This document shows positions 39,054-43,820 of a DNA stretch of 64,000 nucleotides, in pieces; position 1 is the first letter of the stretch; every line of letters starts with the position of its first letter. The position numbers and the translations under genes are program-made. Origin of the DNA: an uncultured Phycisphaerales bacterium (GTDB taxonomy: Bacteria; Planctomycetota; Phycisphaerae; Tepidisphaerales; Tepidisphaeraceae); contig CAWJPJ010000006.1 of the NCBI GenBank assembly GCA_963844715.1, positions 192,001-256,000 of the forward strand. Reading direction: 5' to 3'. The notes under the pieces were generated by a model. That model searched no databases, had not been told where the DNA came from, and worked only from the letters and a program-made list of their open reading frames with translations.

Positions 39054-39647
39054 CTAATTGAATTCAGCCCGATAAACCTGCAAGTTCACCCCGCGATAGA
39101 TCAAGCTTAAATCCGCCCTCGCCCGGCTACCATCCGCAAATTCAATCTCGCAGGACACTTTCCCGGTGGTGAATCCCGATTGATAATCGACCGAACCGTT
39201 CGATGTCCGAATCGACTTCACCGATCCGCGCTTTTTAAAGAAATCCATGTATCCCCTGATCTGATCGTCGGAGATCGATTCCACGCAGTCCCCCCTCGCG
39301 CTGATAAAGTTGCCCGCCGACAGATCCACAATCAACTGCCGCGACTCGCTCCGCATCGGCCCGGTCGTTCCCCGCCACGAATTGTAAACACATCCCCAGA
39401 ATGCCAGATTGATCACCCCAAGAACAATCCCCGCCACCGCCAGCCTGCCCCCGCGCAACGCCGATTTTCGCGTCGCCAGGATCCCTCCAATCCCCGTACC
39501 GATCGCCGCCAATCCCGTTACCGCCGGAATGCAGACAAACCCGCCCAATACCAAACTGGCGACCGCCAATCGGCTAAGCCGCTGCGAAATCACCCCCGAA
39601 TAATCCGAAGGAAGCGGATTACCGCCCGATTTTGGCGTTTGGCTCAT
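39054..39647 (-). CDS. DUF4190-domain membrane protein, tandem paralog
   Basis: SRLAVASLVLG, RGGRLAVAGIVLG, TGPMR..QLIVDLSAG, IEFADGS; similar to the neighbouring gene. Confidence 0.78.
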   Translation of the reverse strand: MSQTPKSGGNPLPSDYSGVISQRLSRLAVASLVLGGFVCIPAVTGLAAIGTGIGGILATRKSALRGGRLAVAGIVLGVINLAFWGCVYNSWRGTTGPMRSESRQLIVDLSAGNFISARGDCVESISDDQIRGYMDFFKKRGSVKSIRTSNGSVDYQSGFTTGKVSCEIEFADGSRARADLSLIYRGVNLQVYRAEFN

Positions 39648-39686
39648 TCCTCCCATCATAAATCGCACTGTCCCCCAAATCTCGGT

Positions 39687-39715
39687 TTGACAGTTTTCAA
39701 CCGAATGGTATATAT
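39687..39715 (+). promoter_or_regulatory. Sigma70-like promoter for the aroF leader
   Basis: TTGACA (39687-92), then TG-G-TATATAT (39706-15); imperfect -10. Confidence 0.6.
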
Positions 39716-39724
39716 CCTCTTGTG

Positions 39725-39799
39725 ATGAATAAAGGTCGCCAGGGTTACCGCTATTGGTTTACGGGTTACTTTTACCCCGTTACCCATACCGCGTCCTGA
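39725..39799 (+). CDS. Attenuator leader peptide MNKGRQGYRYWFTGYFYPVTHTAS (4 Tyr, 2 Phe, 1 Trp)
   Basis: Read directly from the sequence (below the ORF-track size); 7 aromatic codons within codons 8-17, directly upstream of DAHP synthase. Confidence 0.85.
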   Translation: MNKGRQGYRYWFTGYFYPVTHTAS

Positions 39800-39830
39800 G
39801 CGACCACAACGAACAGTGGATAGAAGATAG

Positions 39831-39861
39831 AGCCTCAGGACAAAATCCTGGGGCTTTTTTT
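39831..39861 (+). terminator. Intrinsic terminator (attenuator 3:4 hairpin)
   Basis: AGCCTCAGGA-CAAAA-TCCTGGGGCT followed by a T run, 20 nt before the aroF ATG. Confidence 0.88.
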
Positions 39862-39881
39862 GTTTTTGAAGGGAGCCCCGG

Positions 39882-40904
39882 ATGATAGTGGTAATGAAAC
39901 CTGGAGCCGACAAAAAGCAGGTCGAGCACGTAATTCATTTGGTGAGAGAAATGGGCCTTAAAGATCACGTCATCGTCGGGGAAGAACGAACCGTGGTCGC
40001 CGTCATCGGCGATGACCGTTTCAAAGATCGTTCCGTCCTCGAATCCGTCGACGGCGTGGACCGCGTCGTCCCCATCCTGGCCCCCTACAAAATGGCTTCC
40101 AAAGAAGTCAAAAAAGATCGCACCACCATTCCATTGGGCGGCAAGCTCAAGGGAACCGTTGGCGGTAAAAAAGTTGCCGTCATTGCCGGCCCATGCAGCG
40201 TGGAAAATAAATCCCAGGTCCTCGAGATCGCCCATGCCGTCAAGGAAGCCGGCGCCGTCGCCCTCCGCGGCGGGGCATTCAAGCCCAGAACGAACCCCTA
40301 TTCATTCCAGGGTCTGGCCGAAAAAGGCCTCGAATTCCTCGCCCTCGCCCGAGAAGAAACCGGCTTGGCCGTCGTCACCGAAGTTATGTCCATCGATCAG
40401 GTGGACCTCGTCGCCAAATATGCGGACGTCCTCCAGGTCGGCGCTCGCAACATGCAAAATTTCAATCTCCTCAACGCCGTGGGCGAGCAGAAAAAGCCCG
40501 TCCTATTAAAGCGAGGCATGAGCGCCACCCTCGAGGAATTTCTCCTCGCCGCCGAATACATCATGGCCAAAGGCAACGCCAACGTCATGCTCTGCGAACG
40601 CGGCATACGCACCTACGAGGAATACGTCCGCAACACCCTGGCCCTGGCCGCAGTCCCCGAACTCCACCGCGTGAGCCATCTCCCCGTCGTAGTCGATCCC
40701 AGCCAGGGCACCGGCAAAAGTTATCTCGTAGACAGCATGTGCCGAGCCGCGGTCGCCGCCGGCGCCGACGCCCTGATCATCGAAGTCCACAACGACCCCG
40801 AGCACGCCCTTACGGATGGCGCCCAATCCATCACGCCAGACCAGTTCGCGGAGACGATGCGCGCCATCCAAAAAATCGCCGCCGCCGTCGACCGCGAGGT
40901 GTAA
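39882..40904 (+). CDS. aroF: DAHP synthase, type I-beta with N-terminal regulatory domain
   Basis: [64 protein letters not shown]. Confidence 0.95.
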
Positions 40905-40974: not shown

Positions 40975-43820
40975 CTAATACCCGTTCAAAGTATTACTCC
41001 CCAGCGCAACCGTGGAATCCGTCCCATTGTAAACGATCGCATTCGGATCCGTCGATCCGCCTTGCGGCGCGGTGAACGTATTATTGACGATCAGCGTGCT
41101 CGGATCGTCAAACACATCGATCCCGTTCAACGTCGAGATACTATTCTGTTCGACCACCAGTAGCGTGGTGCTTCCTACGCCCTGCCAGGCCAGCGTGATC
41201 CCCGTCGCCACATCGCCGATGGAGTTATTCCGCACCACATCTCCGACGAAGTCTGTGTACGCGTCATCCGAAGACGTCGCACCGCCTAGCGCTACGCCCA
41301 CCGGGCTATAGATATACGGGCCCGTTTCATCGGGCGAAAGCAGAACCTGGTTGTTCACAATCTGCTGGTAAAACGCCGGCGAATCCAACCCCGGCCACCC
41401 GCTGATCCGCACCCCCTCCGCAAGATTCTCCAGCGTGTTCCCATCCACCACGTTCTGGTACCCGGCAATGCATACGCCGGTGGAAGCCTGCGCGTTCTCG
41501 GCCATTCCCTCCACGCCCGCCATGTCCTGAAGCGTATTCTGATAGACAACACTGTGCGTCATAAAGTTGCCGATCGTGACATAGCTCGTCGAATCCGGCG
41601 TCACCGCCCAATTCCCGGCTATCGTCGCCACGATCGTATCCGTGTCCGTTGCCGCGTCATACGTCGTCGTCTCGCCGGTCACGGTCTCCGTCTGCGCCAG
41701 ACCCGTCCCGCTGGTCACGATCAGTTCCCCGCCTGTCAGCCCCGGCACGCTTCCATGCGGGGCCACCAGCGTTATCGTGTTCGCGGTTGCCGAGCTGGCG
41801 TATCCGCTATACCAAATCGCGTTATTTCCCTCGTTAAGAATCTGCTCCCCCGAGTTCCCCGGATCGACTTGTCCGAGCATCGTCGTGTTCCCCGCGATGT
41901 ACTGGTTGGTCACGTCCCCGAAATCCGTGTTGTATTCGATGAACCGCGACTGCCCAGAACCGTCGGTATTGGTCGTATCCGAATTATTCGCGTTGGCGAC
42001 GTTGCAATTCGTCACGCTCACGTCGTACGTCCCGCCCAGCACCAGTTCCTCTTCCAGGTCGTAGTTTTCGTAAAGATGATCGTTGTTGACGAACGCATCG
42101 TGCGCCACAGCAGATCGATTCCGCCGTAGACCGTGGAGTTTTCCACAGTCACGCCGGAATCACCCTGGAGTATCACCGCCCCCTCGTTGGAGGTGACCGT
42201 CACGCCGTTCAGGACGATGTTCCCGTTATTGATCGACCTGATGAGATCGTTGGCGCCGTTCCATCCGGTCGGAATCCCCGTCGAGACGGTCGCGCCCGCG
42301 TGCTCGATTGTGATCGAGTCAATTTCATTTTCGCCGCTCAGTCCCAGCGCCTGGAGCGCGCCCTGCCCAGGCACATAGGCGATCGCGCCCTGGAATTTCA
42401 ATATCGTGCCCGACTCGCTCTGGCCCAGCAGCCGCACATTTTCGCGCAGCTTCAGCTGCTCGCCGCCGCTCACCAGATAGGTTCCATCGGGGAAATAAAG
42501 CGTGAAATTCTCTGAAGGCGCCGCCGCCTGCGCCGCGTTGAGCGCATTGATCGCAGCGTCGATGGCCGCGCCCGAATCCGCGCTGCCGGTCGGGTCGGCG
42601 CCGTAGTTCACGACGTTAAACACGTTCCCCGCCGCCGTGCTCCACGAGGACGCCGCCGGCGCCATGCTCAGCACCTGCGGCGAACTACCGGACTTGACTT
42701 CCGACCACCCCTCATTCCCGCCGAGGCCGTTATTCACCCAAACATTATAAGTCGTAGTCGCCGAAACAGTCGGGAGCGTGAAGCTCACTTCATAAGGATT
42801 CACAGCGGTGACCGGCGCCCAAATGCCCGCGCTCCCGTCCGTCGGCTGGAGATAAACCCAGGACTCCGGCATCGCCGCGCCGTTCGACAAATTCGTCCCA
42901 TACACCGACATCGTCGCGCCCGAATAACTATCCACCGTCGGCGTCGCCGTCGTTGCACCCAACGATTCGCCGGGCGCGCCGATCCACCAAGCCTGCGTCT
43001 GATTCACCGCCACTGGCGCGCTCGACCCAGTTCCATTCACCGCCCACACCAGATACATCGCATTCGCCGGCAATCCCGCGGGAAGCATAATTGTCACGCC
43101 GTCCGCCGCGGAGACCTCAACCGTCGCGTCCAGATAAGTCCCGTCCGAAGCGCTCGTCTGCCCATAAACGACATACTCCGTCCCGGTATCATCAAGCCCG
43201 CTTCCGGTCAGCGTGATGCTCTGACCGGCGCCGCCCGTCAAACTCGCCGTCGCGATCACCGGCGCGCCCGCTTCCGCGGTGCCCGATTCAAGAACCGGCG
43301 TAAAATCGTTCATCCCGCTGGCGCCCCCGGGATCGGAAACCGGCGAAGAATCGCTATACCCCAACAGCGCCGCGCGAACAGTCTCCGCCGGCGCATCGGC
43401 CACGGGAGCCGGCGCGGCCACCGGCGCGGGAGAAGGCGCCGATGTGGCCGCCGGCGGAGTCGCCGCGGGAGAGTCAGTCGATCCACTCGCGGGTGTCCCC
43501 GAACTCGTCGAAGTTCCAGAAGCCGCCGGCGCGCTCGCCGTCACGGGCTCGCTAGCCGCAACCGGCGCGCTCGTCGAAACAGGCGTAGAAGCCGCGGCGG
43601 GCGCCGAGGGTGAGGTCCCCGGCGCCGATTTCGCCGCGGCTGACGTTAATTGCTGATACGCCGTCCCATTCCCCCAATCCAAAAACCAGTGATCCACCCC
43701 GCGCTGAAACGCCAGCGCCTCGGCGCTCACGCTCAACGTCGCGGTGCTCATGTACTGCCGCTGCTCCAGCGTTTCAAAAACGCCGCGACCTTGACGAGTT
43801 GCTTTTCGATTCATTCGCAT
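40975..43820 (-). CDS. Large extracellular protein: LEPR-like leader, Ala/Pro/Ser/Thr linker, Pectate_lyase_3-like right-handed beta-helix (frameshift near 42110)
   Basis: FETLEQRQYMS; FNVVNYGADPTGSADSGAAIDAAI; LYFPDGTY; LLGQS; Asn-rich beta-helix repeats. Confidence 0.78.

Follow-up and report, generated by a model that had tools for sequence, protein, structure and literature searches.

Leader-peptide attenuation is known from textbook examples, the trp and pheA leaders. Attenuators with leaderless short open reading frames (ORFs) occur in Actinobacteria, e.g. the poly-Cys upstream ORFs (uORFs) of mycobacteria. The leader peptide TnaC of the Escherichia coli tna operon senses free Trp, involves Rho-dependent termination and induces a catabolic operon. 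The present analysis concerns the region upstream of a 3-deoxy-D-arabinoheptulosonate 7-phosphate (DAHP) synthase gene in a stretch of 64,000 nucleotides (nt) from a Tepidisphaeraceae bacterium (Phycisphaerae, Planctomycetota; contig CAWJPJ010000006.1, positions 192,001 to 256,000), called the window at its full length. A promoter, a short leader ORF rich in aromatic codons, three mutually exclusive RNA pairings and a terminator precede this gene (39687 to 39881). Judged from sequence, together they very probably form a ribosome-mediated (leader-peptide) transcription attenuator of DAHP synthase.

For DAHP synthase itself, one attenuator has been described, the aroR-aroF system of Corynebacterium glutamicum. 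The primary study is reportedly that of Neshat et al. from 2014. The aroF gene product of this species is a DAHP synthase of another type than the enzyme considered here. The aroR leader carries the residues Phe-Tyr-Phe and attenuates the aroF operon, as described in passages of Mentz et al. (2013, PMC4046766) and of a review (PMC11802643). According to the regulatory passages of this review, Phe limitation affects the operon, while Tyr availability does not, and the DAHP synthases of E. coli are under the control of the repressors TyrR and TrpR (PMC11802643).

Leader region and predicted mechanism

The leader ORF is located on the plus strand (39722..39799) and comprises 24 or 25 codons, from ATG 39725 or GTG 39722 to TGA 39797-99. 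The product from ATG 39725 is MNKGRQGYRYWFTGYFYPVTHTAS; the ORF listing gives the 25-amino-acid form starting at GTG 39722. An initial annotation of the stretch had pointed to an ORF at 39725-39799 with seven aromatic codons in ten. The reading of the sequence agreed, with Y, Y, W, F, Y, F and Y in codons 8-17. This regulatory block, Y-R-Y-W-F-T-G-Y-F-Y, occupies 39746..39775.

The TTGACA promoter that had been noticed just upstream has its -35 box at 39687..39692. It is combined with an extended -10 element, TGgTATATA (39706..39714; TATATA at 39709-14, spacer of 16 nt), and reaches a promoter score of 10/12, all on the plus strand. A strict scan, which accepts only -10 boxes ending in T, did not list this plus-strand promoter; the score stems from a looser scan. 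With the looser scan, a TTGAC[ACGT]-like -35 box with a spacer of 16-18 nt and a score of at least 8/12 was present in 28 of 29 related loci. GTG 39722 lies 7 nt past the -10 box, directly followed by the ATG. Among the 28 loci with a good promoter, the first in-frame start was found 7-12 nt past the -10 hexamer in 26, most commonly at 7 nt (11 loci) or 10 nt (7 loci). A Shine-Dalgarno (SD)-like motif precedes only one of 29 leaders vs all 29 DAHP synthase genes. Because the start codon is this close to the -10 box and an SD is absent, the leader mRNA is predicted to be leaderless or nearly so, with a transcript start about 7 nt past the -10 box. The probable leaderless translation assumed at the outset is in line with this spacing.

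Three pairings compete for the leader transcript, in the layout proposed by the initial annotation. Segment 1 (39734..39744) is the 5' strand of the 1:2 protector stem. Segment 2 (39791..39805) spans the leader stop and is the partner of either segment 1 or segment 3. Segment 3 (39832..39841) is both the 3' strand of the 2:3 antiterminator and the 5' arm of the terminator. The minimum free energy (MFE) fold of 39720-39865 amounts to -52.9 kcal/mol (z -4.0), a value reached by none of 200 shuffled sequences, and contains the 1:2 stem and the terminator. The full-length MFE structure consists of the same two elements (-53.2 kcal/mol, z -4.75). In the 1:2 stem, 39734-44 pairs with 39791-805 with one bulge and encloses the aromatic codons; folded alone, the domain yields -31.8 kcal/mol (z -3.5). 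The 2:3 helix joins 39793-39801 with 39832/39834-41 across the UGA and reaches -16.4 kcal/mol (z -3.5) when 39788-39845 is folded separately. Removal of the 5' part, as under a stalled ribosome (39766-39845), makes this helix the MFE structure. The intrinsic terminator (39829..39867) has a 12-pair stem at 39829-39857, followed by TTTTGTTTTT, and yields -18.6 kcal/mol alone (z -4.75). An inner hairpin within the aromatic codons (39761..39780) is weak in the window and strong in most relatives.

The proposed mechanism starts with transcription about 7 nt past the -10 box, which would place the leader start codon at or a few bases from the 5' end, with leaderless initiation. With plentiful charged tRNA-Phe, tRNA-Tyr and tRNA-Trp, the ribosome would reach the UGA inside segment 2 and mask this segment. 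The terminator would then arise from segments 3 and 4 and end transcription near 39861-67. In an untranslated transcript, segment 2 would be tied up by segment 1, again allowing the terminator to form. A shortage of any aromatic aminoacyl-tRNA would halt the ribosome within codons 8-17, where it would cover segment 1 or keep it apart, so that segment 2 stays available. As segment 3 emerges, segment 2 would bind it, the terminator could not fold, and RNA polymerase would continue into the DAHP synthase gene. Stalling, termination and the identity of the sensed amino acids are parts of a model that we infer from the arrangement.

The regulated gene (39882..40904, plus strand) encodes a DAHP synthase of type I-beta with an N-terminal ferredoxin-like regulatory domain. 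Its product matches DAHP_synth_1 (4.3e-74) and DAHP_snth_FXD (1.1e-22) of Pfam and, over the full length, PDB 1rzm/3pg9 (2.3e-104). Its Shine-Dalgarno sequence is AGGGAG (39870..39875). The upstream neighbour (39054-39668) is divergently transcribed and encodes a 204-amino-acid DUF4190 membrane-type protein. The next downstream ORF (40975-42108; 377 amino acids) has no match in Pfam. Since both neighbours are located on the minus strand, the DAHP synthase gene is monocistronic. The enzyme keeps its allosteric ferredoxin-like domain besides the attenuator; control would therefore be two-tiered and would govern the carbon entry into the shikimate pathway.

Conservation in Phycisphaerae

Forty relatives were searched with the enzyme, and 350 nt upstream of each orthologue were examined for a short ORF in which 5 or more of 10 residues are aromatic, with a strong terminator behind it. 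Enough upstream sequence was available for 29 loci. An aromatic ORF of 20-25 codons together with a terminator was present in 20 of them: in the window, in every one of the 18 genomes of its family (f1) that could be assessed, and in G030 of another family. The other nine loci, all outside f1, had nothing convincing within these 350 nt. In one of the nine, L029 of family f11, the element was found further upstream. Left out of the counts by judgement were six duplicates (L035, L037, L039, L040, L043 and L046), two loci with too short upstream sequence (L006 and L042), L022 and L031 (5-6 aromatic residues, a distant gene, weak or odd hairpins) and L088 (no terminator). Public Tepidisphaerales/Phycisphaerae records with an enzyme at least 65% identical carried the element in 15 of 21 loci. 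Among loci of other phyla, with enzymes of at most 57% identity, 2 of 59 passed the aromatic filter. The aromatic-rich uORFs upstream of orthologues in f1 and in further Phycisphaerae families are 20-33 codons long.

A covariance model was built from 29 unique loci and run on 150 sampled genomes of the class. It matched 18 of the 20 sampled f1 genomes. Genuine hits, in which an aromatic uORF immediately precedes the DAHP synthase orthologue on the same strand, made up 23 of the 29 that were fetched and came from families f1, f5, f7 and f11. Six weak hits (L134-136 and L140-142) were treated as false positives, with neither a DAHP synthase downstream nor an aromatic uORF. Every structural element named by the initial annotation exists in the window, and the comparison with relatives backs the attenuator model.

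Two loci of family f11, L143 (G120) and L029 (G035), have an aromatic leader (36 codons in L143) and a terminator at a distance of about 190-250 nt from the gene. Between this leader and DAHP synthase lies another short ORF, with G-W-Y-F. It may be a tandem or a decayed second leader.

The pairings were examined in the 29 unique loci. In the terminator, 97.2% of the alignment cells are paired, and four pairs show a compensatory change. In the antiterminator, 84.8% of the cells are paired vs 30-44% with the partner slid by 1-3 columns. In 24 of 29 loci, the leader stop falls within the best upstream partner of the terminator 5' arm. In the distant G030 (L032), both antiterminator strands differ in sequence and are still complementary. 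The 1:2 stem covaries. Its duplex was compared between own and foreign 5' segments, a test used in place of a fixed-register count. The own partner yielded -18.7 vs -14.8 kcal/mol, an average advantage of 3.9 kcal/mol (Wilcoxon p 1e-6, a value overstated because the loci are related). RNAalifold on the 29-sequence alignment recovered the terminator alone.

Alternative explanations and counter-evidence

Forty-five distinct leaders were collected. Phe, Tyr and Trp occur together in 44 of them, Trp in all 45, and each has 5-9 aromatic codons, on average 4.1 Phe, 2.0 Tyr and 1.3 Trp. Aromatic residues account for 31% of the leader residues vs 7.4% in the long ORFs of the window's genome. F, Y and W interchange freely by position. 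Among the Phe codons of the leaders, 68% are TTT (34.5% in the genome's long ORFs), and 72% of the Tyr codons are TAT (47%), a comparison that is only indicative because the leaders stem from many genomes. The U-ending Phe and Tyr codons, though the genome prefers TTC, may serve a U-rich hairpin loop or slow decoding.

The inner hairpin bears on an alternative in which the peptide itself is sensed. In most relatives, the hairpin is formed by the codons of G-Y-F-Y-P (GGN UAY UUU UAY CCN), and both partners vary in six of its seven pairs. In 27 of 29 loci, its stability exceeds that of synonymous recodings (mean z -1.33); the z value of the window is +0.23. Divergent leaders retain a hairpin at this place with other codons. 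The hairpin may stabilize the untranslated state or may pause RNA polymerase until the pioneer ribosome arrives. A nascent arrest peptide with the motif W-F-x-G-Y-F-Y-P, sensing free aromatic amino acids in the ribosome tunnel as TnaC does with Trp, would account for a peptide unusually alike across f1 for a leader peptide, for the nearly invariant W-F and for the TGA stop in 43 of 45 leaders, located inside segment 2. The Gly and Pro positions are explained by the RNA, however, since GGN and CCN form the stem of the inner hairpin with compensatory third-position changes, and the preference over synonymous recodings points the same way. The divergent f7 and f11 leaders lack the motif, though they retain aromatic codons and a hairpin. 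The peptide ends in variable residues (A-S, A-F, V-S, L-P and others), with no conserved final Pro. The terminator is intrinsic, whereas the TnaC type requires Rho-dependent termination, and induction by an abundant amino acid has the wrong sign for a biosynthetic gene, unless it merely reinforces termination. An arrest peptide is very unlikely.

It is equally hard to credit that the short ORF is an independent small-protein gene, encoding a hydrophobic or aromatic micro-peptide, and a chance neighbour of DAHP synthase. Such a gene would fit the strong promoter and the terminator of its own and the conserved peptide motif. The observed linkage is exclusive, however: the element occurs solely directly upstream of the DAHP synthase orthologue, on the same strand in all 23 genuine hits. 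It is unique in the window's genome according to both the ORF scan and the covariance model. For the DAHP synthase gene, the promoter scan of the window lists no separate promoter-like site. The leader stop is embedded in the complement of the terminator arm, which an independent gene would not need, and the non-aromatic leader positions vary freely. A scan of both strands of the genome (4.55 Mb, 59.4% GC) detected 30 short ORFs in which 6 or more of 10 residues are aromatic; the leader ORF is the sole one followed by a terminator-like hairpin within 130 nt. With one such case among 30 aromatic short ORFs, the combination of leader and terminator is beyond chance. No second attenuator of a convincing kind emerged from a genome scan for leaders of other amino acids (His, Leu, Thr, Ile/Val, Trp and others); its hits were not compared with the gene context.

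The predicted attenuation extends to only one of two DAHP synthases. A paralogue, about 45% identical, had no aromatic uORF with terminator at any of 11 loci. At the sequence level, this shows a division of labour between the two isozymes, one of them apparently attenuated and still equipped with its allosteric domain. In the window's own genome, but outside the window, the paralogue (C6:642547-643568; L003/L154) also has the N-terminal domain and is split into two frames, with their overlap close to five consecutive G at about 642940. Either the gene carries a frameshift or the assembly has a homopolymer error. In relatives, the paralogue is unbroken. About 60-110 nt upstream of it, most of the 11 loci (L144-L154) share a conserved CCACTA(A/G)A(C/T)T-like box and, after it, GGCTTTCCC-like sequence, which is probably its promoter.

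A protein- or ligand-binding RNA switch, similar to a riboswitch, a T-box or TRAP, would render the ORF incidental. High nucleotide conservation, the conserved inner hairpin and a flat codon-position entropy would suit this explanation, which is nevertheless highly improbable. A search of 39400-40100 with Rfam cmscan at E <= 10 returned only unrelated weak hits (best E 0.23), none of them a leader, T-box or riboswitch family, none at E <= 0.2 and none near a gathering score. The start codon is kept at a fixed distance from the -10 box, the in-frame stop in segment 2 and the 5-9 in-frame aromatic codons in 45 of 45 leaders, despite sequence turnover and the interchange of Phe, Tyr and Trp. The distance from the aligned start to the stop is a multiple of 3 in 26 of 29 aligned rows. 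Least probable of all is a translational or mRNA-stability control coupled to the uORF, with a hairpin and T-run that do not terminate here: no characterization of intrinsic-terminator efficiency in Planctomycetota was met in the literature, but the hairpin is a canonical strong terminator in all 29 loci (10-13 GC-rich pairs, then 5-9 T) and, at 21-127 nt from the structural gene, too far away to mask the SD.

Several observations weigh against a ribosome-mediated attenuator or limit its details. The entropy per codon position is nearly flat (1.16, 1.23 and 1.28 bits); beyond frame, start, stop and aromatic content, the leader therefore has no classical protein-coding signature. Such flatness would be expected if selection acts only on the regulatory codons and the RNA pairings. 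The antiterminator shows little covariation because both of its strands are highly conserved, and 61 of 500 shuffles reached its pairing level. Own and foreign antiterminator partners differ weakly (p 0.058), and the terminator arm finds its best partner away from the stop codon in 5 of 29 loci. In a fixed register, only 46.7% of the 1:2 cells are paired, a poor count because the stem register shifts between loci.

The folding of the window also fits in part only. The equilibrium MFE structure of segments 1-3 without a ribosome already holds the 2:3 helix (-33.4 kcal/mol, z -1.48), so the protector works only if the order of co-transcriptional folding matters. When a ribosome mask extends 12 nt beyond the first aromatic codon, the window retains the terminator in its full-length MFE structure; with the same mask, relatives switch to 2:3 in 11 of the 26 folds listed. 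The switch must therefore be kinetic, as in enterobacterial systems. A look for RNA runs covering 39600-40400 listed none. Transcript start, 3' ends and leader translation are all predicted. Sensing of all three amino acids cannot be assumed, because Tyr is without effect in aroR of C. glutamicum according to the review. Taken with these reservations, the cis-regulatory element of the locus is real and strongly conserved. Most likely it is an attenuator with a multivalent aromatic leader peptide, read from a leaderless mRNA.

Position among known leader systems

To our knowledge, gene regulation in Planctomycetota is almost uncharted. The initial annotation knew of no such attenuator in planctomycetes. 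Full-text literature searches found no report of a leader-peptide attenuator in Planctomycetota or Phycisphaerae, while an attenuator of DAHP synthase as such has been published (aroR-aroF). The available passages of Naville and Gautheret (2010; PMC2965389) and of PMC1262725 contain nothing on aro genes or Planctomycetota, and those of PMC4833913 include Planctomycetes only within statistics of leader-gene distances. The kind of attenuator is already known, and the Phycisphaerae case is well supported; its occurrence in Planctomycetota appears new, with no prior report found.

The element would be evidence for classical attenuation and for leaderless translation in Phycisphaerae. It is a candidate for a new RNA family, absent from Rfam 15. 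It is clean, conserved and easily testable: its promoter is compact, its leader ORF is predicted to be leaderless, and its terminator is of the textbook kind. For the planctomycete genetic tools under construction, it is a potential native part responsive to aromatic amino acids.

A locus of another phylum, left out of the counts for this reason, resembles the element. In L105 (Calditrichaceae), the region between 138 and 23 nt before the DAHP synthase gene holds a 20-codon ORF with five consecutive Tyr codons, Trp and Phe. A 10-pair hairpin follows this leader, with a T-run 23 nt before the gene. The leader looks like an independent aromatic attenuator. This Tyr5 leader with its terminator may be a lead towards a cross-phylum rule, which is tentative and rather doubtful. 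Type I-beta DAHP synthases would repeatedly be placed under one multivalent Phe/Tyr/Trp leader, and the Phycisphaerae element would be a branch of this largely unrecognized rule, leaderless and with an aromatic-codon hairpin timing RNA polymerase against the pioneer ribosome. Attenuation by all three tRNA pools, not by repressors, would then be the common control of shikimate entry outside Proteobacteria.

The likeness to aroR-aroF is functional and rests on the published description in the passages mentioned above. Both have a short aromatic leader before a DAHP synthase gene. In aroR-aroF, stalling raises read-through and charged aromatic tRNAs govern the entry into the shikimate pathway, as they would in the Phycisphaerae element. 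The Phycisphaerae element differs in phylum and in its leaders of 5-9 aromatic codons, with Trp in every leader and all three residues in 44 of the 45. It further differs in the conserved inner hairpin built from aromatic codons and in the enzyme, which is type I-beta with a ferredoxin-like domain.

With pheL-pheA and trpL-trpEDCBA of enterobacteria, the element shares the 1:2/2:3/3:4 layout, regulatory codons in a leader of 14-30 codons and a stop placed so that a terminating ribosome masks segment 2. The enterobacterial leaders are initiated with an SD, sense one amino acid and precede operons of terminal branches, not of the common first step. In the Phycisphaerae element, segment 1 is located upstream of the regulatory codons, near the 5' end, and the Rfam families Phe_leader and Trp_leader do not match.

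The poly-Cys uORFs of mycobacteria begin at the transcript 5' end without an SD, as promoter spacing predicts for the Phycisphaerae leader, and their stalling at cognate codons controls biosynthetic genes, as it would in Phycisphaerae. The two differ in amino acids, phylum and downstream mechanism. TnaC has in common a short leader, a conserved Trp-Phe pair and a UGA about 12-13 codons later. In contrast to TnaC, the Phycisphaerae element combines an intrinsic terminator with an antiterminator, precedes a biosynthetic gene, and the conservation of its motif is explained by RNA pairing.

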